From positions 64,001 to 128,000 of the forward strand of contig JANOTL010000109.1 in the NCBI GenBank assembly GCA_031416315.1: a stretch of DNA of 64,000 nt, in the 5' to 3' direction. The notes under the pieces are model-generated. The model was not told the DNA's origin. It saw only the letters and a list, made by a program, of their open reading frames with translations, and did no database searches. The stretch comes from Pseudomonadota bacterium. Its GTDB lineage: Bacteria; Bdellovibrionota_B; Oligoflexia; Oligoflexales; CAIYRB01. This document shows, in pieces, positions 43,356 to 63,100 of the stretch. Numbering within the stretch: position 1 is the first letter of the stretch; each line of letters starts with the position of its first letter. Made by a program: the position numbers and the translations under genes.

Positions 43356-44219
43356 TCAACGCGACTTCTTGCCCGCACCAGCCGACCCCGACCCCGACCC
43401 ACTTCCTGCTCCTGCCGCACTCGCCACCGGCTTCATCTTCAGCCGCACCACGATCCTCCGATTCATCGCCTGATTGCTCAAGATCGCAAACCCACGATCG
43501 TCCCGGTCCGGCACCAAGGGCTGAAAGTGCGCCAACCCCGCCGCCCGCATCCGGTGCGGGTCGATCCCCATCTTCGCCAAGACGCGCACGACGCTCGTCG
43601 CACGCTCCGACGACAGCTCCCAGTTGTCGAAGAACTTGGAGTTCTTGATCGGGTCGGAGTCGGTGTGGCCCTCGACCTCGAGCAGCGCGTCGCCCGGCAT
43701 CGTCTGCAGCTGCCGTGCGACCGCCTCGATCGCCGCCATGCCGTCGGCGGTAAGCTTAGCCAGACCGGGGACGAACATGTTGCTCGTGAGCATGACGATC
43801 TCGATCGTGTTCGGCTCGGTCTGGCCGAGGGCGAAGACGGCATCCAGATTCAGGGACGAGGTCGGGTCCTGCGGCGTCGGGGCGCGGTTCTCGTCGGCAT
43901 CGAGCGCGGCTTTGTCGGCCGTCGTGTTCGAGCCGACTAGCATCTTCAGCCGCGCCAGCACCTTCTGCGGCTCGTCGTACTTGCCGGTCGACTTCTCGAC
44001 CTGAAAGAAGAGGATGAAAAAGCACATGAGCAAGGTGACCATGTCGGCATAGCTGAGGAGCCAGGGCTCGCCGCCCTCTTCTTCCTCGTGATGTCCGCCG
44101 GCATGATGGTGACCGCCGCCGTGACCCTTCGCATGCGCGGCGTCATGACCGTCTTCGGCCTCGCCATCGAAGCTCATGCCCTTGGCGCTCAGCTTCTGGG
44201 CGTGGCCGTCACGCTGCAT
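43356..44219 (-). CDS. motB: MotB-family stator subunit with OmpA-like peptidoglycan-binding domain
   Basis: WLLSYADMVTLLMCFFILFF TM with the conserved Asp; VEGHTD; NWELSSERA; NRRI; His-rich N-terminus. Confidence 0.93.
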   Translation of the reverse strand: MQRDGHAQKLSAKGMSFDGEAEDGHDAAHAKGHGGGHHHAGGHHEEEEGGEPWLLSYADMVTLLMCFFILFFQVEKSTGKYDEPQKVLARLKMLVGSNTTADKAALDADENRAPTPQDPTSSLNLDAVFALGQTEPNTIEIVMLTSNMFVPGLAKLTADGMAAIEAVARQLQTMPGDALLEVEGHTDSDPIKNSKFFDNWELSSERATSVVRVLAKMGIDPHRMRAAGLAHFQPLVPDRDDRGFAILSNQAMNRRIVVRLKMKPVASAAGAGSGSGSGSAGAGKKSR

Positions 44220-45033
44220 TGCCCTTCACCTCGCCGCCGCCGCCGCCGGCTCCGCCGGCTCCGCCGGTGACCTTGCCGCGCGCGCTCGGCGGAATGTGAC
44301 TCAAGAGCATCTCGCGCACCAGGATTCCTGGCGTCTTGCGCTTGATCAGGAGGATGCCCTCGACGATCATGAGGCGCTTTGCGGCCGTCTTCTGCGTGCG
44401 GAACATCAGGTTGTCGGCTACGGGCAGGATGAGGACGTTGGCGGTGATGACGCCGTAGAGCGTCGCCGCGAGGGCGACCGACATCGCGGGGCCGATCTTC
44501 TCGCCGGCGCCTTCCTGGCCGAGCGTCGACAAGAGCGCGATCATGCCCATGACCGTGCCCATGAGGCCGGCGGCGGGCGGGTACTTGCCCAGGTTCTTGA
44601 ACATTTTCATCTGATTGCCTTCGCGCTCTTTCTGCACTTCGATGCGGCGGCGAAGGATCGTCTCGATGGCGTCGGCCTCGAAGCCGCCGACGAGGAGGTC
44701 TATGGCGTCCTTTAGAAAGAGGTCGGTGACCTTGCTCTTGAAGGCGGTGAGGCCTTGCATGTCGATCCGGGCCTGCTCGGCCATCTGCACGAGCTGCTCG
44801 ACGATCTCTACGGAGTCGTCCTTCATCTTTTTCGTGATGACCCGGACCATCGGGAAGAAGGACTTCAGCTCGGTCGAGGGCACGGAGATGATGGCGATCG
44901 CGGCGGTGCCGATGAAGACGCAGAAGCCCCCGTGCGCGTCGAGAAAGCGCATCGGCTTGTCGGGGTCCGTCCAGACCGCCATGCCGACCATGAAAATAAG
45001 GGCTATGATGAACCCTATGCCGTTTGAGCTCAT
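44209..45033 (-). CDS. motA: MotA-family stator subunit
   Basis: FIGT; AEQAR; FLKDAIDLLVGG; YPPAAGLMGTVMGMI; IGPAMSVALAATLYG; P.A; EGILLI. Confidence 0.93.
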   Translation of the reverse strand: MSSNGIGFIIALIFMVGMAVWTDPDKPMRFLDAHGGFCVFIGTAAIAIISVPSTELKSFFPMVRVITKKMKDDSVEIVEQLVQMAEQARIDMQGLTAFKSKVTDLFLKDAIDLLVGGFEADAIETILRRRIEVQKEREGNQMKMFKNLGKYPPAAGLMGTVMGMIALLSTLGQEGAGEKIGPAMSVALAATLYGVITANVLILPVADNLMFRTQKTAAKRLMIVEGILLIKRKTPGILVREMLLSHIPPSARGKVTGGAGGAGGGGGEVKGNAA

Positions 45034-45254
45034 TTACGTTCGTCTTCGTCTTTGGGTTTCGGGAGCGCGCGCGCGGCGGCTTTGAGGGCGCCGCCGAGGC
45101 CGCCTAGGCCGAAGGCCTCCTTGCCGTCGCTCAGGAGATCGAGGCGGAGCTTGCAGGTCTCGACGAAGCGCAGGAACTCGCGCCGAACCTCCTGCTCGAG
45201 GCTCGCTTTGAGCTCCTCGGCCTGCTTCACGAAATTGGGGGGGCTCTGGTTCAT
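45030..45254 (-). CDS. Small hypothetical protein coupled to motA
   Basis: 74 aa; stop overlaps the motA start; fills the gap between the rotor-like gene and motA. Confidence 0.6.
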   Translation of the reverse strand: MNQSPPNFVKQAEELKASLEQEVRREFLRFVETCKLRLDLLSDGKEAFGLGGLGGALKAAARALPKPKDEDERK

Positions 45255-45266
45255 GCGGTGCTCGGG

Positions 45267-47474
45267 TTAGGCGACGGCGCGCGGAGTTTTCGGCGTGTCG
45301 TCGAGGAGACCCTCGTCTTTGAGACGAAGAAGGTAGGTCGAGATTTGGCGTTGGAGCGCGAGCGACTGCTTCTCGTTCCGCTTCTTGTAGAAGGTCTTGG
45401 CGTCGAGGAGCTTGAGCTCGTCCACGACGGTCGCGGCTTTGACCTCGGGCAGGGCCTTGATCACCGCTTGGCGCACGGGCTCTGCGGCGGCGAAGATCAG
45501 CATGGCGATCTGCTCGTTGGCGCGCTCGCCGAAGATCTCCATGAGCATCTCCTTCGGCAGGTTCTGGACCGCGTCGAAGGCGACGTAGTGCTTGGCGAAG
45601 TCTTTGCGCACGTCGTCTTTGCGCCCGATCTCGTCGAGGAGAAGCTTCTGGTCCTCGTCGCCGAGGGACTCGGCGAGACGGCCGAGATAGCGCGCGCCGT
45701 CGACGAGGCCGCCAGTCTCCTTGGTCGCCTCCGCCTTGGCCTTGAGCTTCGGCAGCTCCGCGAAGAGCTTCTCGAGATCCGCAGGCGTCGCGGCGCCGAG
45801 CTCGACCACCGCGGTCATGAGCGCCTTCTTCATGGTCTCGTCGCCCGAGGCCTCGACCATCTTCTTCACGCGCACGGGCGAGAAGCAGGCGAGAAACGCA
45901 GGACGCAAGGGCTTAGCGAGCTCGCTGGTGATGCGGGCCAGCTCGGCGTTGCCGAGGCGCGCGAGCCAGGCGACGTCGGTGAGCTTTAGGATCGGCGAGC
46001 CGCCGAACTCCTCGACCGCGATGCGGCCGTAGAACTCCTGGAGCGCCGCGTTGCGCGAAGCCTTCGCTTCTTGAATGGCGCCCGGACGCGCCAGGTGGCG
46101 CTTCAGCCGCTCCATGTGCGCAGCGGTCAGACCTTTTACGAGCTCGGCCGTGGCTTCTCGGGAAAGCGCCAATAGCAGCGCCGAAGCTAGAGGCAAGGAC
46201 TGATCGGAGTCGACCAGGTCCTGCATTTCCCGATACAGAGCAAAGCTCCGCTCTTTCGCCAGAATCTCGATCTTGTCCTGCACGGCGACGAGAAATTCCT
46301 CGAGGCGCGCGCGCTCGCCTTCATCCGTTGGCATCGAGTTGCCCGCGGCTCCGCCGGCTCCGTGCCCTTGCCCTTGCCCGGCCTCGCCCTTGGACTCCTC
46401 GTCCCGGTGCCCTTCCGCCGCCGCCTTCAGCCTGTCCGCCCTCGCCGCTTTTTCCATTTCACGCTGCGCCTCGACGTGCGCGGTCGCAGCCTCTTTCATG
46501 CCGCTACCGATGCTGGCGAAGCCGCCGGCCAAGGCCGTCATGCCCTTTTTGAACGCGCCCGAGCCCATGACCAAGCCGAGGATCACGGCGACCGCGAGAA
46601 TGATGCCGAAGAGGAGGACTTGGATCTTGGCGAGGCCGCCCAGGGCGCCCCCGTCGTCCTTCGCCGCCCCGGCGCCGGCTTCGGTCGCGGCCGACGCGGA
46701 GCCCGAGCCTGAGCCGCTCTCGGCCCTCTTCCTTTCTTCCGCTACGGCGGCCTCGACGGCCAGAAGTTTCGTCTCGAGCTCGCGCACCTTGGCTTCGCGC
46801 GTCGATAGCTCACGGGTCTGCTCGAGGCGGTTGCGCTGGATCTCGAGGTCCCTTTTGGCGACCTCGAGCTTCATCCGCTCTGACTCGAGGTCGAACTTCG
46901 CCTTGTCGCTGCTTGCGCCGTTCAAGGCCGCGGCCTGCGCGCGCTGCGCCTCGCTGCGAAGCTGGTCGGGGATCGACTCGGTGACCAAAGTCTCCGTGCG
47001 GACCGTCAGGGTGCGCGAGGCGCCGTCGACGGCGAGCTTCTTGCCGACGGCCTGCTCGAGGATCTTGCGCTTCGCCTCAGGGATCCTCCGGTCGAAGGTG
47101 ATCTCGGCGCGGATGGCCTTGATCTTGCGGCGGACGACGCCCGCGGAGCCCTCGGCCATGCTCGAAAGCTTTGCCGGGTCGACCTTCAGCGTCAGGTAGG
47201 GAAGGCTCGCGGAGCCGCCGCCCGCGCTCTCGCCGGCTGCGACGGTGCCTTCGTCGAGCTCGACGTCGGCGACGACGAAAAACTCCTCGGGCGCCAACTG
47301 GCCGCGCAGGAGCGTCGTGATCTCGCTCTCGATCTGCCTTTGTCCGGCGAGCCGCTCGGCCGGATCCACGTCCGCACGCGCCGCGCTCGTCGCGAGGAGC
47401 GCGACGATGACGGCGATCGCTGCGAGGCGCAGCGCAACCAACGGCGACGTTGGCGTGGAGTATGGGAAGCGCAA
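45267..47474 (-). CDS. FliF(RBM3)-like / coiled-coil / TM / FliG-like fusion protein
   Basis: Signal peptide (..TSAARA-D); QIESEITTLLRGQLAPEEFFVVADVELD and IKAIRAEITFD..ILEQAVGKKLAVD..TLTV resemble the two halves of FliF RBM3; one TM; C-terminus GARYLGRL..YVAFDAVQNL..IAMLIF..VVDEL..QRQI..LLRLKDEG aligns by eye with FliG-C. TTG 47474 start chosen (GGAG RBS); ORF is open to 47543. Confidence 0.8.
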   Translation of the reverse strand: MRFPYSTPTSPLVALRLAAIAVIVALLATSAARADVDPAERLAGQRQIESEITTLLRGQLAPEEFFVVADVELDEGTVAAGESAGGGSASLPYLTLKVDPAKLSSMAEGSAGVVRRKIKAIRAEITFDRRIPEAKRKILEQAVGKKLAVDGASRTLTVRTETLVTESIPDQLRSEAQRAQAAALNGASSDKAKFDLESERMKLEVAKRDLEIQRNRLEQTRELSTREAKVRELETKLLAVEAAVAEERKRAESGSGSGSASAATEAGAGAAKDDGGALGGLAKIQVLLFGIILAVAVILGLVMGSGAFKKGMTALAGGFASIGSGMKEAATAHVEAQREMEKAARADRLKAAAEGHRDEESKGEAGQGQGHGAGGAAGNSMPTDEGERARLEEFLVAVQDKIEILAKERSFALYREMQDLVDSDQSLPLASALLLALSREATAELVKGLTAAHMERLKRHLARPGAIQEAKASRNAALQEFYGRIAVEEFGGSPILKLTDVAWLARLGNAELARITSELAKPLRPAFLACFSPVRVKKMVEASGDETMKKALMTAVVELGAATPADLEKLFAELPKLKAKAEATKETGGLVDGARYLGRLAESLGDEDQKLLLDEIGRKDDVRKDFAKHYVAFDAVQNLPKEMLMEIFGERANEQIAMLIFAAAEPVRQAVIKALPEVKAATVVDELKLLDAKTFYKKRNEKQSLALQRQISTYLLRLKDEGLLDDTPKTPRAVA

Positions 47475-47563: not shown

Positions 47564-48379
47564 CTAATGGGTATTTTTTGCCGGGTCGGCGACGGCGGCC
47601 GTGGCTTTGGCGGGAACGAGGAGAACGTAGAAGCTGCCGACCTTTTCCGGGCCCTTGCCGTCGCCTCGATCGATGGCGACGCTGTAGGCGCCCTCGGCAT
47701 AGACGGGCGCGACGAAGTGCGTGCCGGTCGCCAAGCCGACCAAAGGCAGGCGCTCGCCGGTGCTTTCGACGCCTAGATGGATCTTGTACTTCTCCTTGGC
47801 TTTCGTCGGCGGGAACCAAAGGATGGGGAGCGCGACCGGGAACTTGTCGGTGATGACGATGGCACCCTTCTTCGGGTGCAGGATCGTCGTCGCGATCGGC
47901 GCCATCGAAGGCAGGTCTTTGCCGCTCCCGCCTTCGGGCTTGGGCTCTTTCGGCGGCTTTTTGTCGGCTTTGGCGGTGAGGTAGATGGCGTTGATGCGCT
48001 CCCATGCGCTTTTGAACGCGACGCCGACCGTCGGCGACGCCTTTGCGCCCTGCGCCAGGCCGTCGGCGTAAACGCTGGTGAGATCGACCTCGCGTAGGAC
48101 GTCGACGGTGAGGCGGCAAATCAGGCTGGAATCGGCGTTTAGACTCATCTCGCGAACGTTGCGGCCGGGTTCTTTGCGGGCCAGGAGGAGGCTGCCGCTG
48201 GTGAGCGTCTGCACCAGGCTGTCCTCCGGGAGGTCGACGCCGGGCTTCAATTTCAGCCATTCCGCGGCGCGGTCGCTCCAGACGGCGAAGTTGCCGTCGA
48301 TGGCCAACACCTCGAAGGTGACGGCCGCGCGCGCCGGGCTCGCGGCGAAGAGGCAGAGGAGAAAGAGGACGCGGATCAT
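47564..48379 (-). CDS. Secreted protein with FecR-like N-terminal domain
   Basis: Signal peptide ending ARA; VLAIDGNFAV..WLKLKPGVDLPEDSLVQT..GSLLL is a FecR-type pattern; beta-rich C-terminus. Confidence 0.6.
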   Translation of the reverse strand: MIRVLFLLCLFAASPARAAVTFEVLAIDGNFAVWSDRAAEWLKLKPGVDLPEDSLVQTLTSGSLLLARKEPGRNVREMSLNADSSLICRLTVDVLREVDLTSVYADGLAQGAKASPTVGVAFKSAWERINAIYLTAKADKKPPKEPKPEGGSGKDLPSMAPIATTILHPKKGAIVITDKFPVALPILWFPPTKAKEKYKIHLGVESTGERLPLVGLATGTHFVAPVYAEGAYSVAIDRGDGKGPEKVGSFYVLLVPAKATAAVADPAKNTH

Positions 48380-50262
48380 GCGGCCGCCGCCGGCGTCTCG
48401 TCTTCGCCGTCCGGCTTCGCCTCGGGGCTTGCCGACGCGACGCGACGCTCGAGGAGCAGGATGCAGAGGTCGTCTCCTGCCGGCGCGCCGCTCAGGTAGC
48501 TCGTCCAGCTGGAAACGATCGCATCGAGGACCTGCTCGCCGTCACGGCTCGCGCCTTCAGTGAACATCCGCCGCAAGCGGCGGCTGCCGTAGATGCTGCC
48601 GCCGCCGGTCGGGCGGCCTTCGATCAGGCCGTCGGTGTAGAGGAGGAGACGAAACGATGCCGGCACCTTGATGGTCGCGACGCCGAACTTGGGCTCCGCC
48701 TCGACGCCGAGCGGCATCGAGCGCAGCTTCACGAGCTCCACCGAAGCTTCGACGCCGTGGCCCGATTCCAGCAAGGGGAAAGGATGGCCGGCGTTGGTGA
48801 CGACGAGGACGTTCTCCGCCTTGCGCCAAGTGATGATCTGCATCGTGACGTGAATCTTGTCGAGCGCGAGGTTGCGCAGGCGATCGTTGACGGAGCTCAT
48901 GAGCTCGATGGGCGCGATACCAACGGTCTCGACGCGCTCGTCGAAGAGGGCCGCGATGATGGCGGTGAACATCGAGGAGCCGACACCGTGGCCTGAGACG
49001 TCGGCGATCGCGACCGTGACGTCGCCCGAGGCCTCGTCGAAGTGGCAAGCGTACCAGTCGCCGGCGCATTCGTCGGCGGCTTGGTACCGCATCATGATCT
49101 TCAGCTCGGGATGGTCCGCGGGCAGGTTGGGGACGCGCAGGAAGGTGTCCTGCAGGCTCTTTGCGATGGCGAGCTCGTTCGCCATGCGGAGCTTTGCCAT
49201 GCGGTCCTCCATCAACTTGCCGATCGCCTGGTCGCGGGAGGTCAGGCGTTGCGCCATCGTGCGGAAGGATTCGACGAGCGGGCCGAGCTCGCCGAAGCCT
49301 TTGTTGCGCGGCAAGCGTGAAAAGTCGCCGCGGCCGATGTGGACGGCCAGCTGCGACAGCTCGCGGATCGGGTGGAGGAGCATCGTGGCTGGCAGGGCGA
49401 CGAGGGTCACGGCGCTGACGAGGAGGCCGAAGAGGATGAGAGAGAAACGCTTGCCGAGCTCCCAGACGACACCCAGGGCCTTGGCCTTGGAGGTTTCGGC
49501 GAAGAGCACCAAATTCGTCCCCGAAATTTCCAGGTAGAAGCCGTAGACCGGCCCAGCCTGGCCGCCCGGGATCTCGATCTGCGAGTTGGTGAGGTTCCGC
49601 TTCACGAAAGCCGCGACCAGCGGGCGCTGGGCGAACGTGGATTGGTTGATCTCGGGGGTGTTAGAATGAATGAGCAGCCCTGCGTGCGTCACCAGATAGA
49701 ACTTCGAATGAGCGGCGCTGATCGCGCTGCCGCCCACCGCTCCCTTCTTGGTCATCCATCCGCCCACGTCCTCCTGCCAGAGGTAGAGCTTCTTGCCACT
49801 CAGAAAGGCTACGAAGGATTGATCGCCGTATCGAACGATCGTCCAGGTGTCGGGCCGCGGCGAAAGCTTCAGGCCGAGCTCGAACCACCTGAGTTTTTTC
49901 GGCAGGCTCCCGGCCTCGCGCTCGATCGGCGAAGTCGGTGTGGCGCCGAGCTTGTAGGTCGCGGTCGCGCCGCCGGTCGGGCCTTGATCGAGGCGCGGCA
50001 CGCAGCTCTCGGCGAGGCGTGTGCGCGCGGCGTTCGCCTGGCGCTCGAGGTCGAGGTAGAGAATCGCCCAGGTGTCGCGCAGCTTGTTCGCGTAGAGGAT
50101 CTCGAAAGCGGCGACGCCGGCGAGCGTGCCGGCGACGACAACGGCGACGGCGACCACCGCCACGATCAAGCGCGTGAGCGTCCAGAAAGCCACGAAACGC
50201 GTCTTCAAACGCGCGACGAGCTTTTTCTTGGGCGTTCCGGGTTTGAGCGCGGGAGTGCTCAC
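48376..50262 (-). CDS. Membrane SpoIIE/PP2C Ser/Thr phosphatase with periplasmic sensor and HAMP
   Basis: Two TMs; HAMP (ELGPLVESFRTM); AGDWY; IADVSGHG; NAGHP; YTDGLIE; DDLC. Confidence 0.93.
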   Translation of the reverse strand: MSTPALKPGTPKKKLVARLKTRFVAFWTLTRLIVAVVAVAVVVAGTLAGVAAFEILYANKLRDTWAILYLDLERQANAARTRLAESCVPRLDQGPTGGATATYKLGATPTSPIEREAGSLPKKLRWFELGLKLSPRPDTWTIVRYGDQSFVAFLSGKKLYLWQEDVGGWMTKKGAVGGSAISAAHSKFYLVTHAGLLIHSNTPEINQSTFAQRPLVAAFVKRNLTNSQIEIPGGQAGPVYGFYLEISGTNLVLFAETSKAKALGVVWELGKRFSLILFGLLVSAVTLVALPATMLLHPIRELSQLAVHIGRGDFSRLPRNKGFGELGPLVESFRTMAQRLTSRDQAIGKLMEDRMAKLRMANELAIAKSLQDTFLRVPNLPADHPELKIMMRYQAADECAGDWYACHFDEASGDVTVAIADVSGHGVGSSMFTAIIAALFDERVETVGIAPIELMSSVNDRLRNLALDKIHVTMQIITWRKAENVLVVTNAGHPFPLLESGHGVEASVELVKLRSMPLGVEAEPKFGVATIKVPASFRLLLYTDGLIEGRPTGGGSIYGSRRLRRMFTEGASRDGEQVLDAIVSSWTSYLSGAPAGDDLCILLLERRVASASPEAKPDGEDETPAAAA

Positions 50263-50667: not shown

Positions 50668-51069
50668 GTGAAAGACGACAAGGACGCGGTCACGCGGATG
50701 TTCGGCAGCGAGCGCGTGAAGGGCCTGGGGTTCAGGCGCATCAAGCCCGATCTGAGCTTTGGCGTGTCGAAGCTGACCGACGTTTCGAGCTGGTTCGGAA
50801 GTGCCGCGATGCCGGCGCCGCCGGAGCCTTCGGGCGCGACGAGCGACGCGTCTGCGGACGCTCAGGGCGACGCCGGCAGCGGCGTGAGCTTCGGCCTCAC
50901 CGCCTGGCGCGACGCGCTCTCTTCCGCGGATCGTGACCTCGCCGACGCGATCGGACTGGCGCTCGGCGCGCTCGACGACGCGGAGCGCGAGCTGCTCTTC
51001 TCCGGCTGCGAGCCGGACGAGCGCCGGACCCTCGAGGCTTGCTTCAGCTTGGCCGAGGCGAAGCCGTGA
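50668..51069 (+). CDS. Hypothetical protein with weak FliG-ARM-like C-terminus
   Basis: AAGGAG RBS; GTGA overlap with the next gene; IGLALGALDDAERELLFSGCEPDERRTLE. Confidence 0.6.
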   Translation: MKDDKDAVTRMFGSERVKGLGFRRIKPDLSFGVSKLTDVSSWFGSAAMPAPPEPSGATSDASADAQGDAGSGVSFGLTAWRDALSSADRDLADAIGLALGALDDAERELLFSGCEPDERRTLEACFSLAEAKP

Positions 51070-51602
51070 GCCTCCGCGCCGCCTTCGCTTTGAGCTTGGT
51101 CGTCTTGGGCTGTCGGACATCCGGGACGCTGGACGCACCGGTGCCGACGACGGCCGTGAGCCTGGGCCAGGACCTGAAGCCGGCGGCGCGCCTGGGACGC
51201 CTCCCGATCCCGGTCGACACCGACGACGTGATGCAACGTTATGCGTTGCAGCCCATCGGCGCCGCCACCGAATATCTGATCGTCGTCACGCCGGACAAGG
51301 TCGACGGCAAGATCACCGTACCGCTCGGCAACGGAAGTAGCAGCGCGGACGCCGCCGTCGTCTACAACGAGTATCTGAACCAGCTGCTGCGCGCGCATCG
51401 TCATCTTCTGCGCGGCGAGGTGCGCGACGCCATGGTCGTGCTCGACCGGCTCGACGAGCGCTTCGATCAGAGTTACGGCGGCCTCGTCCTGCGCGGAAAC
51501 CTGCATTACCTCCTCGGGAACGCCGGCGAGGCCGCGCGGCAGTTCGAGCTGGCGCGACGGATCTTCCCGGGCGCGAAGGCGCTCGAGGGGGTGAAGAGAT
51601 GA
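51066..51602 (+). CDS. TPR-containing lipoprotein
   Basis: Lipobox VLGC; TPR-like LRGNLHYLLGNAGEAARQFELARRIFP. Confidence 0.8.
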   Translation: MSLRAAFALSLVVLGCRTSGTLDAPVPTTAVSLGQDLKPAARLGRLPIPVDTDDVMQRYALQPIGAATEYLIVVTPDKVDGKITVPLGNGSSSADAAVVYNEYLNQLLRAHRHLLRGEVRDAMVVLDRLDERFDQSYGGLVLRGNLHYLLGNAGEAARQFELARRIFPGAKALEGVKR

Positions 51603-52207
51603 GGGCTTTTTTCGCGGGACTATTGCTGCTCGCAGGCTGCTCCACCAGCTACGACATCCGCACCAAGCCGGACGGGGTGAAGCTCTACGTCGGCGACAAG
51701 CAGATGGGGACGACGCCCTTTGCCCTGAGCTCCGGCGACGCGCCGAAGTCCGAGGCCGGCGGCGTCCTGGCGCGCCTCGAGATCGAGGGCTACCAGCGCG
51801 TCTTCGTGTGGCTGCCCGACGACGGCAAGCGCTACGACCTCACGTTCAACATGACGCCGTTCTTCCGCCGGGCGCGCGACGAGTCGGTGGTCGGCGATCT
51901 CGAGATCGATCGCATCGACCTCTACCGACTGAGCGAGCGGCTCCTCGACCTGCAGACGGATCTTCTCGCTGGGACGCAAACGGCGAAAAACCCGGCGGCT
52001 GAGGAGTTGAAGCGCCTCATCGACGCGAACCCGACGATGGGGTCGATGCATTTTCTGGAGGCGCTCAGGCTCTTGCGCGAAGGCAAGAAGGACGAGGGCA
52101 AGCTGGTCCTGAAGACGGCCCTGCGCTTCGCGCCGAGCGAGTTCGACTTCCTATCCTTGATGAACGAGCTCGGAGGCGACGCGAATGCGGCTAAGCCTAC
52201 GCCTTAG
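51599..52207 (+). CDS. PEGA-domain lipoprotein with C-terminal TPR-like helices
   Basis: Lipobox LAGC; YDIRTKPDGVKLYVGDKQMGTTP...EGY is a PEGA pattern. Confidence 0.82.
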   Translation: MRAFFAGLLLLAGCSTSYDIRTKPDGVKLYVGDKQMGTTPFALSSGDAPKSEAGGVLARLEIEGYQRVFVWLPDDGKRYDLTFNMTPFFRRARDESVVGDLEIDRIDLYRLSERLLDLQTDLLAGTQTAKNPAAEELKRLIDANPTMGSMHFLEALRLLREGKKDEGKLVLKTALRFAPSEFDFLSLMNELGGDANAAKPTP

Positions 52208-52829
52208 CGCGGTCCTCGCGGCCGGCGCGGCGGCTTTGGTCGCGGGCGCCCCGGCCCTGTCCTTGCCGAACCAAGAGATCACCGTCGGGGTTCCGTCCGG
52301 GAACTACACGAAGACGACGATCTCGGAGGTGTATAAGGGCACGGCGCCTTACGGCTTCGCGACGGAGTACGGGATCTTCCTCGACCCTAAGCTCGCGATC
52401 GCCGGGCAATTCGAGCTCAACCTGGAGCCGACGAAGCAGAGCGCCGTCCTCCTCGGCGGCGCTGCCGGTTTGAAGTACTACGTGGTCGGCGGCGACAACC
52501 GCATCCTCTCCGACACGTACGTGAAGGGCGTCGGGCGGCCGAAGCTGAATGCGTTCCTGGTGGTCGGCTTCGGCGGCAAGCAGTACGACTTCAGCGTCCC
52601 GGAGAAGGTGGAGGACGACAAGAAGGCCGGATCCATCTTCGAGAAAGACGGCAAGGATCTGGCGAAGGGCTCGGTCGTCGGCCTGTCGGTCGGGCTCGGG
52701 GCGCAGTATCCGATCTTCTTCGATCTGCAGCCTGGATTTCGGGTGCAGATGTTCAAGTCGTTTTCCGCGGAGAATCAGCCGGATATTACGGTGATGGCGG
52801 TGTGGTTGTCGTGTGGGTTTGGGCTTTAG
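52185..52829 (+). CDS. Small outer-membrane beta-barrel protein
   Basis: Signal peptide; amphipathic strands (GLKYY, FLVVGFG, LSVGLGAQY, LSCGFGL end). Confidence 0.7.
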   Translation: MRLSLRLSAVLAAGAAALVAGAPALSLPNQEITVGVPSGNYTKTTISEVYKGTAPYGFATEYGIFLDPKLAIAGQFELNLEPTKQSAVLLGGAAGLKYYVVGGDNRILSDTYVKGVGRPKLNAFLVVGFGGKQYDFSVPEKVEDDKKAGSIFEKDGKDLAKGSVVGLSVGLGAQYPIFFDLQPGFRVQMFKSFSAENQPDITVMAVWLSCGFGL

Positions 52830-52890
52830 AGGGAGTCTAAAAAGGCGCGGGACCGTAAACCTACGTCCCGCGCCTTTTTAGACACCCTCT
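52828..52890. terminator. Bidirectional intrinsic terminator between convergent operons
   Basis: 26-nt inverted arms AGAGGGaGTCTAAAAAGGCGCGGGAC / GTCCCGCGCCTTTTTAGACaCCCTCT (one mismatch) with A5/T5 tracts and an 11-nt loop. Confidence 0.9.
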
Positions 52891-54074
52891 TAGAGCGCCG
52901 GCGCCGCTTCCGCCAGCCCTGCCAGCGCCGTCCGAATCTCGTCGTCCCGTCCCATCGGCGTCAACAAGCGCCGCCCGTTCACATACGCCCCCGGCGGCCG
53001 ATCGATGCCGAGCGTCGCCGTCATGGCGCGCGCTTGCGCGGCGAAGGCCTTGGCATCATCGGAATCAACGCAGGGCGTGAACTCCGCCGAGATCAGCTGC
53101 GCTTCCTGCGCGCCTTGCGTCGTGATCCACTCCGTCAGACCGGCGACGTTCCCCGCCAGATGCAGAGGCGCGCGGTGCGCGACGTCGAGCCAAGCGGTCA
53201 GGCGGTCGCCGCCGCCTTTGGCGGCGCAGAACTGCGCGCGCGCGAACAGCTCGTCGACCGGGACGTCGCCCTTGCCCACGAAAGGAATCGGCCGCACGCC
53301 GAGCTTGCCGCCCGCGCCCTTGCGGAGAAGCTCGAGCTGCGGCCACGAAACGCGGCAGTTCTGGCAGAATGGCTGGGTGACGACGAGCGCCTCGACCGGC
53401 GCCTCGCCTTTGCCGCCGAGCGCCGCGAAATCCGTCGTCTTCATCTCGACCCGCGGCGGGCAGGGGAGCGGCGCCAGACTGACGAAGCTGCCCTCGGTCT
53501 TCATGGCGGCGCGGCGCTCCTCGACCCAGCGCTGGACCTTCTGCGCCTTGAGATGCCCCTCGATCGTCGGGCGCAGCTTCTCGAGGTTCGACTCTTTCGG
53601 AAAGCCGGACTTGTTGGCCTCGTAGAACGCCTTCACCTCGTCGTTCTCGACCGTGGCCGCATCGCCGGCGATCGCCTCGAGCTCCGGCAGCTCGCCACCG
53701 GTTTCCTTCGCGGCGCTCATGCGCAGCGCGACGCTTTCGATGATCTGGTTCTGGCGGACCCAGCCTTCCTCTAACGAGCGGACGAAGCGCGTCCGATCCG
53801 CAGGCGGCAGCTCCTGGAAGCTCACCTGCTTGTCCTTCAGCGCGAAGAGCGGCGCGGGCTTCGCTTCGCTGTCGCCGAGGTAACACTGCGCGAGGCCGCT
53901 CAGGACCGACGCCGCCGGCTTCGCCGGCTCACCGGGCGTCGCGGGCGAAGCCGGCGAGCTCGGCGCTTGGTAGCCGATCTTGCCGCCATCCGCGCTGCGC
54001 TTGCCGATCATGACGCCGGCCGCTACGCCGACCACCAACCCCGCCACCAATGCGCCGCCGAGCTTCGCTTGCAT
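52890..54074 (-). CDS. Membrane-anchored DsbA-like thioredoxin-fold protein with helical N-terminal domain
   Basis: N-terminal TM; EVKAFYEANK helical region; QPFCQNC (CxxC); GIDRPPGAYVNGR. Confidence 0.8.
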   Translation of the reverse strand: MQAKLGGALVAGLVVGVAAGVMIGKRSADGGKIGYQAPSSPASPATPGEPAKPAASVLSGLAQCYLGDSEAKPAPLFALKDKQVSFQELPPADRTRFVRSLEEGWVRQNQIIESVALRMSAAKETGGELPELEAIAGDAATVENDEVKAFYEANKSGFPKESNLEKLRPTIEGHLKAQKVQRWVEERRAAMKTEGSFVSLAPLPCPPRVEMKTTDFAALGGKGEAPVEALVVTQPFCQNCRVSWPQLELLRKGAGGKLGVRPIPFVGKGDVPVDELFARAQFCAAKGGGDRLTAWLDVAHRAPLHLAGNVAGLTEWITTQGAQEAQLISAEFTPCVDSDDAKAFAAQARAMTATLGIDRPPGAYVNGRRLLTPMGRDDEIRTALAGLAEAAPAL

Positions 54075-54125: not shown

Positions 54126-57100
54126 TTAGGGTACCGTGAAGTCGTACTTTTTGCTACAGGTGCGCAGCGAGGGCTCGAGCGGCGAGCCGATCGGGCCGGC
54201 TGGGTTGGCCGCGTGCAGGGCCGTGAGTCCGACCGCGTCCACGCCGATCTGCTTCGTGGCGTTGGAGCCGAAGCAGCGGACGCCTTCCGGGACGACGACG
54301 CAGGCGTGGTTCTTGCCGGCCGCAACCGCGTACACATTGCTCAGTTGCGCCGGACCCGTGTCGAGGGCCATGACCGGGACCGAGGAGGCGGCGGTGTCGT
54401 CGTTCCCCAGCTGTGAGCTCGCGTTCGCGCCCCAGCAGGCGAGCTTCTTGGTGGCGAGGAGCGCGCAGGCGTGCCCGCCGCCGACCGAGATCGAGACGAC
54501 GGAGCCGAGGCTCCCCGTGCCGCCTACGTTCTGGACCGTGGTCGGGTTCTTGATCTGAGTGTAGGTCAGCGGAGCGTTGACCGCCGCGACGCCGTCCGCA
54601 TTCGAGCCCCAGCACATCGCCGTGCCGTCGGCGAAGACCGCGCAGCTCGTCTTGCCGCCGGCCGCGAGGCCGACTGCGTTGGCGATGGCGGCGTTGCTGA
54701 CGTCACGTACGAGAACTGGGAAGAGGCGGACCAAGTTGGCTGCGCCGGGCGCAACGCGGGTCAGGAGCGTGGCGTCGTTGTGGTAATAGTTGTTGTCGCC
54801 GACTTGGTCCATGTCGTTGGCGCCCCAGCAGAGGAGCGACTGGCCGGTGACGTTGGCGCCGGAGATCGAAACGCGAAGGGCGCAGGTGTGGGCAGAGCCC
54901 GCGGCGATAGAGAAGGCGTCGGTGAGATCAGCGGTGGTATCGACGTTGTCGGAGGCGTCCTTAGCGGTGACGACCTTCACCGGCCTAGGGAGAGCGGTGT
55001 GGACGGTGAGGCCGTCGCCGAGCTGGCCGTTGTCATTCCTGCCCCAGCAGAAGACTTTGCGCGTGGTGTCGACGGCGCAGGTGTGGTCGTCGCCGGTCGC
55101 GATCGCGACGATATTCGAAAGATTGGCAGCTTGTTCCGGGATCGGCTTCCGCACGAAGGCCGGGTATCTCAGCGACGCGCCGGCGCCCATCTCGCGGTTG
55201 GCGCCGAGCTGGCCGAACTCGTTCGAGCCCCAGCAGACGACCTTCTTGGCGGAAGTGAGGGCGCAAGCGTGATTCTTGCCCGCCGCCACCGCGACGAGAC
55301 CGAAGAGCTCGGAATCAAAGTCCGAAGGATCGCGAATTGCCTGCGGATCGGACGCGCTGGCCGTGGTCGAGTGCAGCACGTTGCGACCGAGCTTACCGAA
55401 GTCGTTGGCGCCCCAGCAGGAGACGCGGCCGTCGAGCTGCAAGGCGCAGGAGAAGCCGTCGCCCGCGGAGACGCTGGCCATCTTCGCCGAGGAGCAGGAG
55501 GTGCCAAGGCAGCCGTCGAAGGCCATCTGGGCGCCGGCCATCGAGGCCTCCGGCGTCGGGACGAGGGCGGGGATCGGACGGCGGAGGTTGGTCGGCGCGC
55601 CGAGGTCCTTCAGCTCGAGGAAGCGGCCGATCTTCGCGGTCTCGGTGGCGCTTCCCACTTCCCAGCTCGTAAGGTGCGTGCCGAGGTTAGTGAAGATGTT
55701 CAACTGGCCGTCGACGGAGTCGTAGTCGGCAGTGACGGCGAGCGAGGTGACGCCGGTCCCGAGGACACCAGTCGCAGTGGTGCATGCGCCCGCGCCGCAG
55801 TTGCTGCTACCGGTCCGGATGGTGATCGAGCCGGGGAGCACCACTTTGCACTGGCTAGAGAGCGTTGGTGCGAGCCATGCAAGGCCGAAGCTGCGCGACG
55901 TGTCGTCCGGAATCGAGAAGCTGATCGTACCTTGGTTCGAAACCTTGGGGGTCGTCGCGTTGGTAGTGACGGTGTAGACGACGCGGCCTTGGCCGGAGTA
56001 GCCAACGGTCGGCGTGAACGTGAAGGAGCAGATTCCCGTCGTGGCGCTGCAGGTCGGGCCGGTGGTGATCGTGCCGCCGGAAGGCGTGCCGACGACCGTC
56101 AAGGCCGTGGCCTTGTCGTTCTCGCGGTCGGTGTAGTCGGTTCCAAGCGCAAGCGCGACCACGATCGGCGTGCGGTCCGGCATGACGACCGGGAAGCTCG
56201 TGGCGACCGGGGCCTCGTCGCTCGCCGCGATGTTGATCGTGATGATTGCCGCGTTGGAGTCAACGTTCGGCGTGCCTGAGATGCGCGTCTTGTAGTGGAC
56301 CTTGGCGTTGCCCGTGAATCCGTTGTTCGGCGTAACCGTGAAGTCGCACGCGCCGGAGGAGCAAGCAATTTCCGTCGGGTTGCCGGCGATCGTGCCATTC
56401 TCGAGCGACTGGATCAGAAGCTTATCGACATTCGGGCCCGGATTGTACGTGTAACCGGCGCCGCGGGCGACGGTCAGGGGCTTCGGCTGGTTCAGGCTGC
56501 CGTTGACGGTGAAGCTCTGCGAGCGCAGCTTCGGCTTGAAGTCGACGGTGACGGTCGCCGGCGTCGTGGCCGTTTGGCCCGCCGTCTTTACGTTGAAGTT
56601 GAAAGTCGCGTTGCCGTAGTGTTGGGCGTTCGGCAGGAAGCTGACGAGGCAGATGCCGGCTGTGTCGCATTCGATCGGGCTATCCGGCGACAGGGTGCCG
56701 TTGACCGCGCCCGAGACTTGGAGCTCCGTGGCGAGATCGGTCGCGTTGACGTCGGTGTAGCCGGTGGTCGCCCCTTTCGAGATAGCGATGAGCTTGGCGG
56801 TCTCGTCGGAGCCAATGAAGCTGAGGTTGTAGACGACCGGAGGCGTCGGCACGGGGACGACGTCGATGGTCAGGTTCGCGTAGTTCGACCATGTCGGGGC
56901 GCCGGCGGGGCCGGCCTTTAGGCGGTACTTGAGCGCGACCGTGCCGACGTAGACGGGAGTCGGCGGAGTGTAGGTGAACGTGCAGGTGCCGGTCGTGCAG
57001 GAGCCGATCGCGACCGTGCCCTTGGCGGCTGGGACTGGGGTCAAATCGTCGTTGACGATTTGGAGCTGCGTCGCTTCGTCGTAGATATGCGTCCCGTGCT

Positions 57101-60100
57101 TCGCGTAGTCGGTGACCTTCACGATCGAGCCGTTGAGCGGTGTGTTTTCCGACGTGGTCCGCGTGGCGTTGGCGGCAAGGAGGTGCTTCGAGACCGCGAT
57201 CGTACCCGTTCCGGTCCCCGACCAGACTTCCCAAACGCTGACCTTGTAGTCGAAGGTGAGCGAGCCCTCAAAGTTGAGCGCCGGCATGATCTTCAGCGTC
57301 AGGATCTTGGTCACCTGATCGAAGGACGATTCCTGGATCGAGCCGTTCTGCACGTTGAACGCGTCGATCTGAATGTTTTTGCCAGTGAAGTTCGCGTCGT
57401 CGGCGTAGGTGTAGCCCCAGACCGTGGAGCCGTTCTCGCGGCCTAGGTAAACGGTGATGGGCTCGTTAACCGAGGTCGTGAACTGAGCGGGGCTGGTGAC
57501 GACCGGGGTCGCTTTGACCCAGAAGCGATAGAGGCCGTCGGCGACGATGTAGGTGTTTCGGTTGCCGCTGTCATAGTGGAATGGATACGGGACACCGCGC
57601 GTGTGGTAGGTGCGCGAGTATGTGTCCCCGACGTACGCCTTCCACTTGAACTCGACTAATCCCCAGTCGAAGGTCGACGTCGTTTTGAAGTCGAAGGAAC
57701 AGGTGCCGTTAGCATCGCAGTTGGTCGTTTCGCAGGCAAAGTCCACTGACGTCGTGCCGGAGCAGGTGACGCCCGAGCCCGTGATCGCCGCGGAAACAAA
57801 GGGCGATCGCAGGCGAGCCAAGGCTTCCGGGGCGAATCCGAAGACCTTGATCTTCGTCGCGTTGGCCGTAAAGCCGGTGGCTGTGTCTAACGGCGTGAAG
57901 TATTCGTGATCTTTGTAGTCGGTGACGGGGGCCGTGCCCCGCTTACGGAAGCTGATCACCTTGGTCGAGTTCTGGGCCACGTTCTCGATCATTTTTTCAT
58001 TACGAATACATATGTAGTCAGGGTCGGTGTACAACGGCTCGTGCGGGCAGATGTTGCGCGTGGCGACCTTGGGAATGATGCGCGTAAAGAAGGTCTGGGT
58101 GTTGGTCGCACAGCCGAGGTCGTCGTAGCCGCGGAGGAGAACGGACGCATAGCTCAGCTGGTCGTCGTTGAAATCCGTCGGCGTGGCGAAGCCGGGGAGC
58201 GACCAGTCGAAGGTGCAGACACCGTTGACGCAGACGGGCGTCGAGATCGTGCTGCCATAGGCATCGACGACCGTGATACTCGAAAGCGGACGACGCTCGG
58301 CTCCGGAGGCGGGGTAGTTGTAGTGATTGCCATTGGCGCCGACCGCGCCGATCGTGGTGCTGAACGTGGAGCCTTGGTCCGCGTTGCTGTTCAGGAAGAC
58401 GTGAGGCTCGAGCTCGCCGGAGAGGAGGCAGCCCTGCCCGCCGCCGTTCAACGAGACCTTGAAGGTGATCTTCTTCCAGTCGCTTTTCGTGACCAGCTCG
58501 TTGTTGAAGAAGTGCGTGCCTTGTGGGGTCGAGTACGTGAGGTTCTCAGCCGACACGACGCGGTACCAGAAACCTGCCGAAGCCGGGTAGCTCGGGTACG
58601 TGGTCGCGGACTTGAATCCGCCCTGGCAGAAGCCGCTGCTGCAGACCATCGGGCCGTCCAACGTGCCGCCGGTCGGGGCCGGAGCGCCGTTCGTGCCGTC
58701 GCCGATCTCGATCGAGGTCGCCAAGTCGGAGCCCGGGTAGGGCCAACCCGAAGGAGCCCAGTGGTTGACCGCGAACGCGTCGTCCGGATCGATCGGAGCG
58801 ATGCCCGGCTTCAGGATGAAGTTCTTGGTGGCGTTGCGCCCGAGGGTGAAGTCGGTTTCGTAATTGGCAACCGTGACGTCTGGGTCTTGGGTGCCGTGCA
58901 CCGGCAAGTGCTCGTTGACGAAGGGGGTCGAGTCGCCGGAGGAGATGTAGATCGAGAGAGTCGACCACAATGGCTGCTCTTTCAGCACGCCGCCGTTATC
59001 CGTCGTCACCTTGTATTTGACGGTCGCGACGTCGTTGACCTTCGTGCCGTTCGGCGTGAAATTTAGGGTGCAAGCACCGCTCGGGTCGCACTCGAAGGCG
59101 TCGTTGGCGTCCTTGCCAGAGGCATAGTTGAGCGTGCCGCCAACCAAGGTCGCAGGATCGATACGGACCTTTACGGCCTTGTCGTCGTCGACGTCATAGT
59201 AGCCGAAGCGCCAGTGCTCCCACCATCCCGGGTTACTGTCGAGGTTGCCGCGACGCGGGTTGTTGGCGGCTGCGGCGTTTATGTAAGGCTTGAGGACGAT
59301 GTTCATGGGCGTGCCGACGCCGTTCGCATAGAACGTGCCGGTCGAGAGCAAGGCGTCGGGGTGCGCGACGAAGAGATACTGGCGGTTCAGCATCAGCGTT
59401 TGCGCGTTGTCGCCGAACACCTGCGGTGCGTCATCGACCGCCGTGTAGGTCAGGGTCATGGTCTTGTTCGCGGACCAGAGGCCGTTGGCCTTCACTCGGT
59501 ACGTGATGATCCCCTGGCCGGCCTTGTCGAAGGTCGGGGTAACGTTGACATTGCAGACGCCCGCCGGGTCGCAGCCGGTCTGCGCGGCGACTTGGAACAT
59601 GGCGGCGTCAAAGCTGATGACCTCCACGTCGGTCGCGCGCATCGGATAGCCGTCCGGATCGCTCACGTAGGAGGCATTGATCTGTGTCGCTGTCCTATAG
59701 CCGTCGCTCGGCTGCAGGACGATCGTTGCGGTCGTATCCTCGAGCATCGTCTGGGTGATTGCGTCCGCGACGGGCGCCAAAGCTTCCTTGATATCGAACG
59801 TGATGACGCCCGTGTCAGTGCTCAAAGTGTTGGTATTGATCACATTGCTATGCGTCTTAAGCTTCCAGCTGATGAGGCGGGTGTCGTTGACGACGTCGAC
59901 TGGAGGGGTCCAAGTCCACTTGCAAGCGGCCGTGCCGCAGGTACAGACGACATCGGGCGCGCTGACGGCACAGATCGTATTGTCACCACCGTTGGCGACG
60001 GAGACGCCGGAGAATGTGCCCGAGACGAGCGCGTTGCTGGCGTTCAGGAAGCGCAGCTCGACGACGTCGTCGTCGTTGGTGTCCTTGTACCATTTACCGT

Positions 60101-63100
60101 TGCCGCACGAGATGTTGTCGCGCGCCATGGACGTCGGCTTCGGCTGGTTCTTGAAGACGATAAGGGTCTTGTCGCAAGGATCCGGAGGGTTGTCGTTGGG
60201 CTCGACGTGGATGCGCATCCACGTCGACGTGTTGGTCAAAAGGTCCGACTTGACGTCGTCCACCGCGCCGCAGCCGCCGTTGAGGGTGCGACAAACTTGA
60301 TACTGAAGGTCTACGTCGCCGTACCAGTAGGAGGTCGTGCGGAACGTGCCGGTCCATACGCCTGCCGAGATCGACTGGTCGACGATGGAGCCTTTGCTGG
60401 AGAAGTTGCCGGCGGGAGTGACGATCAGCAAGTCCTGCAGCGTCGCAACTTGGGGGTTGTCGGCCTGGGTGTACCCGTTTCCGAGCTCGATGCGCAGCGG
60501 AACGTCCGTGACCGGAATCAGGACGCCGTTAACTAGGACCTGCTGCTTGTCGAAGGCCCGGCCGGTGAGGGCGTGCTCGAAGACCTGCGAGACCGTGCCT
60601 GTCGCTTCGTCTGAAACCGAAGTGAAGTGCGTCGAGTCCGAGGAATGCGTGACGCGAACGCGATATTTGAAGGTCGAGTCACCGGTGTAGACCAACTTCG
60701 CCGGCGCGAAGCTCGCGGAGCAGATGCCCGTCGCGCAGCCCGTGACCGTTATCGTTCCCCAAGGCACGCCGGCCTTGTTCGGTTGCTGCGTGATCTCGAT
60801 GTCGGTCGTGAGCTCCGGCAACAGTCCCCAAGGCGCGTCATACGCGTCGAACTCGACCTGAGCGGGAACCGCGGTGTTGGCGAACTTCAAGGGAACCGTA
60901 CGGCCTTGGACCGTATTGAGCGTGAACGGCTTGGCAACGGTGCGCGGCATGATGATGATCGAGTACGTCGTCTCTTCGCTCGGGAAGGGTAGGTACTTGA
61001 CCGCGTCGCCGACGACGGTCTTCAGCTTGAACGTGGCAGCTGCCGTCGTGTTATCACCCGAGACGTTATTCGAGTCCGGAACGAAGTCGGCATAACAATT
61101 GTCGCCGGCGCAGGAGAAGTTGCTGGAGAAGGAGCCGCCGGTCTGGCTGACGACGAGGATCTTGGCCGGGTTCGCGTGCGTCCCGGCACGGCTGTGGGTG
61201 TAGTCGATGCCTTTTTTCACGACGATGCGCATCTGCTCGCCGGCCGGCTTCGTCACGTCGCCGATGCCTTCGACCCAGCGGAGCTCGCGGGTTGCGGCTG
61301 TACGAATCGGGCGGGGGAAGACATCGAGGTTGTAGACGCCGACTGGCGTAGTCGACCACACGGTTCCGTGGGCGGCAGTGGTAGCGACCACGTAGTCAAA
61401 CTGCGTGTAGCTGGTCGGATCGGTTGTGAAGAAGCCGTCGTTCGGAGTGAAATTGGCGGAGCATACCCCAGAACCAGTGCAGCTCCAGCCGCTGAGGGTG
61501 CCGTCGGGGGTCAAAGTCAACGAGCCAGGCCGCGCCCAAAAGGAGCCTGGATCGGATAGGAGATGTGTATAGCCAGAGTTCAAGCTCACCGAGACCGCCG
61601 TCGTGACGGGCGAGCCCGCTGGGCCTGCCTCGACGACCGCCGTTTTCGTCGTCGCCTTGGCGCGCGGGTAGAAGTAGACGGCTGAAGTGCCAAGTATGTG
61701 CGACTCGAAGTTGTTCACGTCGCGCACGTGGTAGGTGAAACTGGCGTTCGTCGCGAACGACCCGCCGGAGAGCGGTGTGACGTTGACGTCGCAGACGTTC
61801 GCAACGCAACTTTGCCACGTGCCGCTGCCGGCGATCGTCGCGTTGTTGACCGAGGCGACTTTGTACTGCGAGATCGTGTGGCCGAGAGTATGCTCAAAGC
61901 CGCCGACGCTGGTACCGCCGGTTCCGGACGCGATCGAGACGACCTTGACGACGTCCTCTTCGCCTTCGTTGGCGCCCGCCGGGTAGTTGCGCGAGTTGGC
62001 GAGAACGCGCGGCGTCATCGTGATGGTGACGGTGCTCGCGTTCATGGCGGCCAACGGTGTGATGCCGTCGGCTTCGACGTAGCTCAGATCGCGCGTCCGG
62101 AAGGTAAAGCCGCCGGAGAGATTGCCTTCGCCGTCAGCCCAAGCGCGTGGCGTGAAGCGGATGATGCAATCGCCGCTGCTGCAAGGACAATGGAGCTCTG
62201 TGCCGGCTACCGTACAGCTCAGGTCCGAGCCGCCAATGCTCGTGCGGTACTTGACCGTATCGCTAAGCGCATTGGAGATGTTCGTGATCACGACGCTGCC
62301 CGCGTCGTGGTCGTCTTGGTGCGTGTAGCCGAGGCCCGCGCCGCGACTGATCACGATGTTGATCGCCGTGCCTTCGGTCGTGGACGCGGTCAAGTTTTGC
62401 GTGCGATGTCGCGGCACGAAGGTGACGCTACCAGATGAAGCAGTGTCCTGAGTGACGCCGTTGACCGTTACTTTTGTCGTGAACGTGACGACCTGCGCGG
62501 TAGTGCTCAAAAGTTTGACCGTGCACACGCCGGTCCCGCTGTTACAAGTCGGCGGTTCGGCAAGGGAAGCGCCGCCGCTGATGTTTTCGACCGCGATGGT
62601 GTCTGCGTAGTGCTGGGTACCGTGGACGTTTGCCTCGTTGTTCGGGAACACATAGCCGCATTGCGTGACGGCGCCGGCCGGGCAGAGTCCGGAAACTCTG
62701 TTTCTAACTTGAAAGGTATAGGTTTCGTTCTCGATCGCGTTCCCAAAGCTTATGTTGTCGGGCTTTGGCAGCGGGCGGAAGTAAACGTAGCCGATGCCAT
62801 AGAGCTGGCTCGTGGGCGGTTTTACAGTCTTCGTCTCGATAAAATGCTCGATTTGGTACTTGAAGCGTGCCCAGCCCCAGCGCTGATTCGTGCCAGGGCT
62901 GCCGCCCGGGCCATAGTCGCTCGCAAGAAATGAACCCGTTGATATCGGGGACAGATCAATCCGGCAATTCCCGGTGCTCGAGTCGCATAAGGTTGCGTCG
63001 TTCTCGATCGTCGGGCCGTCGAGGTTGGCGTTGTTCACGTAACCGCTGACGTTGTTCTTCTTGAAATAGATCGTTGTCGCTTTCGTATTTTCGGCGTGCG

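Follow-up and report, generated by a model that had tools for sequence, protein, structure and literature searches.

The window analysed here, a stretch of 64,000 nucleotides from a Pseudomonadota bacterium (GCA_031416315.1, contig JANOTL010000109.1), encodes a protein of 735 aa in which a FliF RBM3-type domain, one transmembrane helix (TM) and FliG are joined in a single chain. Given that this fusion travels with its own MotA/MotB and with outer-membrane partners, even where no flagellum can be detected, it likely belongs to a rotary machine that is distinct from the flagellum and has not been described. We assign a probability of roughly 70% to the fusion being a stator-driven, flagellum-independent rotor. 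The protein has neither RBM1/RBM2 nor a FliM-binding motif, a flagellar-type stator is co-inherited with it, and the module occurs in a genome without a flagellum; we infer that the fused rotor forms a ring and binds MotA. The features of the gene and its surroundings are listed in Table 1.

Table 1. Features of the fused rotor gene and neighbouring genes, in window positions
Feature	Position	Strand	Basis or distribution
Fused rotor gene, 735 aa (signal peptide, RBM3, stalk, TM, FliG N/M/C)	45267..47474	-	
Signal peptide, residues 1-34	47373..47474	-	Hydropathy (12-30); cleavage site by eye
FliF RBM3-type ring-building domain, residues 37-164	46983..47366	-	AF2, VIA-align, Pfam, hhalign
Predicted periplasmic helical stalk, ~85 aa	46725..46979	-	Sequence pattern, weak coiled-coil protein matches
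Single transmembrane helix, residues 286-304	46563..46619	-	Hydropathy
Two helices directly before FliG_N, at the position of the FliF C-terminal FliG-binding hairpin	46203..46322	-	Model
FliG N-terminal domain	46008..46202	-	Pfam FliG_N at residues 430-489, E 5.7e-6
FliG middle domain, EHPQ FliM-binding motif lost (LAKP)	45750..45986	-	
FliG C-terminal domain, YVAF hinge and torque helix	45303..45713	-	Pfam, structural superposition
74-aa ORF between rotor and motA	45030..45254	-	Conserved in closest subfamily
MotA, flagellar (PomA/MotA) type	44209..45033	-	Pfam MotA_ExbB, E 4.7e-23
MotB with ion-binding Asp motif, plug and OmpA peptidoglycan-binding domain	43356..44219	-	Pfam
Secreted protein, no Pfam family (FecR-like by eye only)	47564..48379	-	Family in 22/46 loci
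Membrane HAMP-SpoIIE (PP2C) sensor phosphatase	48376..50262	-	Family in 24/46 loci
TPR lipoprotein of closest subfamily	51039..51602	+	In 6/46 loci
PEGA-TPR lipoprotein, most constant neighbour	51599..52207	+	In 36/46 loci
Small outer-membrane beta-barrel	52185..52829	+	ESM Atlas 0.97 to OMP_b-brl clusters

Domain architecture of the fused protein

The rotor reading frame is uninterrupted and begins with a TTG codon, with GGAG 9 nt before it; an upstream sigma-70-like site (47553-47524) can be put down to chance (one such site against 0.5 expected). Hydropathy yields two segments only, one at residues 12-30 and one at 286-304, in agreement with the signal peptide and the single TM proposed by an earlier sequence-only reading of this DNA, and the TM peak has one equivalent in each of the 16 family members scanned. 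The signal peptide is likely cleaved between A-R-A and D, as read by eye. The stalk is likely a coiled coil, judging from its sequence pattern and from weak matches to a coiled-coil protein. Across 62 rotor family members the spacing between RBM3 and the TM is 28-132 aa, and the canonical FliF of the same genome has only ~15 residues between RBM3 and TM2, so that the stalk of the fused rotor is much longer. No NCBIfam model matches the rotor protein, and a single-sequence PDB search with it returned coiled-coil noise only.

The sequence-only reading had recognized the two halves of RBM3 at the N-terminus, the beta-collar being replaced by a short insert, and no RBM1/RBM2, and all of this holds. 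The AF2 model of the N-terminal domain (pLDDT 81) has an alpha-beta-[insert]-beta-alpha-beta order, and its best three matches among 48,161 chains (VIA-align) are all FliF RBM3 domains, with Z scores of 12.6 (8Z5V), 12.3 (6SCN) and 11.1 and superpositions of 89-94 residues at rmsd 2.0-2.4. SpoIIIAG and OsmC proteins follow at Z ~8, and EscJ/PrgK at 7.2-7.4; an OsmC/Ohr fold was rejected with its Z well below that of FliF RBM3. The SpoIIIAG ring (5WC3, Z 8.1), which is the next structural match, likewise has a single RBM3-type domain outside flagella, but it is a sporulation channel, without FliG or a stator. Foldseek agrees with the FliF RBM3 assignment, although an E of 0.001 was never reached.

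At the sequence level, profile-profile alignment of the 62 members with 30 FliF of the phylum recovered the two RBM3 halves at E 5.7e-6 and 3.8e-4, with scores of 29.2 and 23.6, whereas 40 block shuffles reached at most 20.7 and 18.2. Pfam YscJ_FliF_C is matched by 10 of 42 N-terminal domains (best E 9.9e-5), no other Pfam family being matched twice in this set, and when 131 genomes were scanned with the same model, the five weakest matches with E <0.01 all lay in frames of the rotor family. Against the PDB, the profile of the N-terminal domain has a FliF chain as its best match, but a weak one (E 0.021) that is closely followed by an unrelated protein. Neither RBM1 nor RBM2 was matched by the 62-member profile (hhalign versus FliF, E 0.16-0.19). 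Moreover, since RBM3 begins at residue 37 in the rotor and only 12-104 residues precede its helix 1 among the 62 members, there is no room for these domains. The RBM3 insert spans 29-68 residues in the family and is modelled, at low confidence (pLDDT 50-59), as a loop with two short helices and no beta-collar strands.

For the cytoplasmic part, the same reading had described FliG-like middle and C-terminal helices. Both domains are present, but the description has to be extended: Pfam FliG_N is matched as well, in 17 of 34 family members and in the window's own rotor, and therefore the whole of FliG is fused. The helix pair directly before FliG_N is modelled at pLDDT 88-96; it lies outside the region covered by the structural alignments, and its comparison with FliF C-termini was not significant (hhalign, E 0.15). 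A profile built from 73 sequences matched FliG structures with E 6e-30, against E 0.013-0.046 for MgtE. With a model of residues 383-726 (pLDDT 94), FliG chains fill the top 12 Foldseek rows. The C-terminal domain (Pfam FliG_C, residues 622-722, E 1.1e-4) superposes on stator-bound FliG (8UCS_H) with Z 11.7 and rmsd 2.6 over 88/88 residues, versus Z 6.6 over 52 residues for MgtE, and Pfam finds neither a CBS nor an MgtE membrane domain in the rotor. The C-terminus is thus FliG, and the generic MgtE-N/ARM fold that had been considered for it is ruled out by these E values and Z scores. The cytoplasmic model fits clockwise-state FliG better (rmsd ~7 versus 13-14 for counter-clockwise), but this fit was set aside because a monomer model gives no reliable angles between domains.

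The individual motifs fall where they had been read by eye. YVAF (residues 630-633, 45576-45587) aligns with MFxF, and LPEVKAATVVDEL (residues 675-687, 45414-45452) aligns with the FliG torque helix. In the rotor, the equivalents of D288/D289 are D/E and that of R281 is V; among the 62 members, D/E is found at D289 in 51 and at D288 in 43, and K/R at the R281 position in 27. The EHPQR motif that binds FliM keeps its E in one member and its H in none, compared with 4/4 canonical FliG.

The stator, the envelope partners and the flagellum

The neighbourhood was compared over 46 loci, which were taken around the best of the long-form matches and come from the phylum only (Oligoflexales and kin); some of them stem from the same genome, seven belong to closely related members of a single genus, and many end at contig breaks. 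MotA is found within 9 kb of the rotor in 32 loci and MotB in 29, in many gene orders, and several of the 14 loci with no MotA within that distance end at contig breaks. Two metagenome loci show the same module pattern. In the window, the rotor gene lies upstream of motA/motB on the same strand, with the TPR lipoproteins and the barrel on the opposite one; the earlier reading of the locus was incomplete in that it had missed these cognate motAB and envelope genes. The barrel, taken as three families combined, occurs in 24/46 loci, with one of the three assigned by size and position only, and an unannotated family of large proteins lies near the rotor in 9/46. The ORF of 74 aa has phmmer matches at L055:5650-5922 (E 3e-4) and L214:3568-3798 (E 5.5e-5).

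The module MotA scores far better with NCBIfam PomA (6.6e-40) than with TolQ (7.8e-6), and MotB matches the Pfam families MotB_plug (3.3e-13) and OmpA (4.8e-13). With the MotB Asp, plug and OmpA domain and a MotA of the PomA/MotA type, the stator carries the marks by which the accessible text of PMC12505986 recognizes flagellar-type stators, namely the plug and OmpA domain of MotB; the naming of the R90/D288-D289 pair follows the same text. In the module MotA the equivalent of R90 is retained and that of E98 is T. An apparent covariation of charges between rotor and stator, with Fisher p values of 4e-5 and 0.03 when all 36 raw pairs were counted, was rejected, as it lost significance once correction for kinship had left only 3-5 independent pairs, and the correlation of rotor and stator tree distances (0.65) is expected from co-inheritance alone.

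These partners could also be accommodated by a static or ratcheting envelope scaffold, in which the stator pushes FliG and opens or remodels a barrel complex in the manner of TonB/Tol, with no continuous rotation. The constant partners are envelope proteins (lipoprotein in 36/46 loci, barrel in 24/46), the module holds no axial or filament gene, and one of the two rotor-stator charge pairs is lost in the window's rotor. However, the stator is of the PomA/MotA and not of the TolQ/ExbB type, and the rotor retains the complete set of FliG domains together with the torque helix, parts whose role in flagella is to rotate the ring, so we regard such a scaffold as unlikely, if the strongest of the alternatives.

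Some loci show further particularities. At L055:6741-7560 (+), the module motB is split over two frames, by a frameshift or an assembly error. Near the fusion gene at L076:3994-6647 (+) are a weakly MotA/ExbB-like protein and a long coiled-coil protein with a MotB-like start, by sequence a putative atypical stator pair. In the window, a thioredoxin-fold (DsbA-like) membrane protein (52890-54074, -; Pfam E 6.6e-4) stands between the barrel gene and that of a giant secreted protein of 7684 aa, with Ig-like and C-terminal RCC1 repeats, which adjoins the module and extends from 54126-63980 (-) of the window to G000:C109:141180.

The genome of the window has a normal flagellum, with canonical fliF, fliG, fliM, flhA and flagellins elsewhere. 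When twelve of its flagellar proteins (FliF, H, I, J, M, N, P, R, FlhA, FlhB, FlgC and flagellin) were searched within 9 kb of the 46 loci, no match was found. A different MotA, on contig C55, is matched by a single orthologue in 113 of the 131 genomes and is absent from nearly the same genomes as FliF; on the basis of this co-presence, we take it to be the component of the flagellar stator. In a quick tree, MotAs of the C55 type (14 of 30 rows kept) form their own branch with support 100, while all 32 module MotAs fall in another branch (SH-aLRT 88), which also takes in 11 other rows. Outside the flagellar clusters of this genome there are also an orphan second canonical FliG (G000:C16:235-1242) and a weak second FliM-like match (G000:C31:29799-30296).

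FliF, FlhA, flagellin, FliM and the C55-type MotA were all searched for in G044 (96% complete) without a match, and this genome has the rotor, motA, motB, sensor, lipoprotein and barrel all together; the flagellum-free module is known from this one incomplete genome. The uncoupling from type III export that the sequence-only reading had proposed is therefore supported, since RBM1/RBM2 are missing, no flagellar genes lie nearby and the module is kept in G044 without a flagellum. The same observations bear on whether the protein could be part of an alternative or accessory flagellar motor, for instance an additional rotor ring, or a depot for stators, used under some loads. Most carriers of the module, the window's genome included, are flagellated, and the extra motAB pairs of Bdellovibrio reportedly serve a single flagellum (Morehouse 2011, as related in the accessible text of PMC12827227). 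Yet the protein has no RBM1/RBM2 to house the export gate and no EHPQ for FliM, flagellar genes are absent around the 46 loci, and the module is intact in G044, which makes this role improbable.

Slightly less probable still is a mechanosensor, in which the HAMP-SpoIIE phosphatase would read stator engagement or ring load and no mechanical work would be delivered. The sensor phosphatase is present in 24/46 loci, one family member carries a C-terminal MshEN domain (L069, see below), and stator mutations in Bdellovibrio shift its lifestyle, according to the accessible part of PMC11323537. Against this, the sensor is absent from 22/46 loci, the lipoprotein is the more constant partner, and no physical tie between phosphatase and ring is apparent.

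Range of the family and further fused rotors

A search of 1.84 billion representatives recovered 62 relatives of the rotor, most of them 640-740 aa long with an identical layout. The named relatives are Oligoflexales genomes, one of them listed in the same order as the window's genome. In four genomes (family f12; L031-L034, G046-G049), a stand-alone protein of 330 aa corresponds to the cytoplasmic part of the fusion; these four have no FliF, and no MotA at E 1e-15, which speaks against the rotor reading. At L069:6738-9326 (+), a rotor carries a C-terminal domain of the MshEN family, which binds c-di-GMP (E 2.7e-16).

The window's genome itself encodes two further fused rotors, and four MotAB pairs in all. 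The second rotor family (G000:C130:71356-73899; L014:11357-13900, +) combines two RBM3-like repeats, which are weak matches (E 6e-4 and 5e-3), with a TM and FliG_M/C, keeps an EKPQ motif and occurs in 78 of 131 genomes. In 4/4 loci fetched from family f19 it comes immediately after a motAB of the C202 type, and contig C202 of the window's genome carries the motAB type that adjoins the C130-type rotors there. The third (G000:C136:31388-38814; L228:5389-12815) is a signal peptide-TM-FliG-like protein of 576 aa, which has a divergent motA/motB of its own nearby, along with a TPR protein; no significant match to RBM3 was found for its N-terminus. The three fused rotors would thus appear to pair one-to-one with three non-flagellar stator pairs.

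Proposed mechanism and comparison with known systems

As a stator-driven rotor, the fusion would be exported through Sec and, after cleavage of its signal peptide, would carry RBM3 on a periplasmic helical stalk, ~12 nm long if all 85 residues are helical. Stacking of RBM3 and of the FliG M-C domains would close a membrane ring, with FliG as the gear below. The cognate MotA may dock on the torque helix through the retained pair of the R90/D288-D289 type, and the ion-driven MotA/MotB, anchored to peptidoglycan, would then turn the fused ring; with no FliM/FliN, such a rotor would have no chemotactic switching. The PEGA-TPR lipoprotein and the small barrel could couple the ring to the outer membrane, and the HAMP-SpoIIE sensor phosphatase may regulate it. 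Some points count against the rotor. Ring closure by RBM3 is likened here to isolated Salmonella RBM3, whose ring-forming construct (residues 231-438, in the accessible text of PMC8786727) includes the beta-collar that the fused rotor does not have. In addition, R281 is replaced by V in the rotor and E98 by T in its MotA, and the peptidoglycan would have to leave a gap for a stalked ring to turn. As for the load, a surface protein that is moved or exported, in surface motility or prey contact, is a conjecture we hold doubtful, the giant RCC1/Ig-domain protein beside the module being a possible candidate.

The fused rotor shares with the flagellar motor core (FliF, FliG, MotA/MotB or PomA/PomB) the RBM3 fold, a single TM that precedes the cytoplasmic part, the FliG N/M/C domains with hinge and torque helix, and a stator with plug and OmpA. 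It differs in being one chain, with a cleavable signal peptide in place of TM1 and a long stalk between RBM3 and the TM, in having no RBM1/RBM2, beta-collar or EHPQ and no export, rod or FliM/FliN genes nearby, and in being kept without a flagellum. Covalent FliF-FliG chains as such are known to work: as described in the accessible texts of PMC7355467 and PMC10941966, which deal with Salmonella and Vibrio constructs, engineered fusions form rings and, in Salmonella, rotate and are motile (motility, PMC7355467). Those are, however, laboratory constructs of full-length FliF, with RBM1-3, inside the flagellum.

The nearest published natural case, and the one natural fusion that we found in print, is the FliF-FliG fusion of Chlamydiaceae (Bergeron 2016, PMC4768692), which likewise joins FliF and FliG outside a working flagellum. 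In the accessible text of that paper it is a protein of ~330 aa with two TMs, RBM2, no RBM3 and a FliG_M-like domain only, linked to the injectisome, and the flagellar genes listed for Chlamydiaceae are FliF, FliL and FlhA only. The window's rotor has RBM3 only, the whole of FliG and a dedicated stator, so that, as far as that text goes, the two fusions keep complementary parts. No description of the module was found in the full texts covered, which are largely openly accessible papers; the supplements of PMC12505986 may list such neighbourhoods. Nor did literature searches find the FliG-like gene that is presumably located near Bdellovibrio motAB2, or the FliF-FliG fusions that we take to be annotated in Chlorobi.

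Ion-driven units resembling the stator also power the non-flagellar loads of the 5:2 motors AglRQS-Glt (gliding), GldLM, TolQR, ExbBD and ZorAB. We know of no FliG ring in any of these, and the TPR and outer-membrane barrel partners of Glt presumably resemble those of the module. The B subunits of such motors are mostly devoid of plug and OmpA domains, as the accessible text of PMC12505986 has it, whereas the module MotB carries both.

The module is real in the sense of being conserved, as judged from sequence, and is made of flagellar parts but lies outside flagellar motor membership; its function is predicted. FliG rings and stators with plug and OmpA are, to our knowledge, regarded as specific to the flagellum. 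The broadest interpretation is tentative, although we rate it a little above the proposed surface load: the module may represent a second bacterial FliG-ring motor, self-contained and assembled through Sec, with periplasmic stalks, dedicated MotAB and lipoprotein/barrel coupling to surface proteins, with up to three rotor-stator sets per cell, derived from a core independent of type III export that would be the missing intermediate in flagellar evolution. If the rotor reading is true, this natural rotor-stator set, minimal in that it lacks a rod, a switch and an export gate, would add a new machine to the envelope of predatory-type bacteria, and its three proteins would offer a simple system for reconstituting torque generation. 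The module would then allow a test of whether rotation is possible without type III secretion, and in the genomes that bear it, annotations of extra motAB or fliG genes are not necessarily flagellar.
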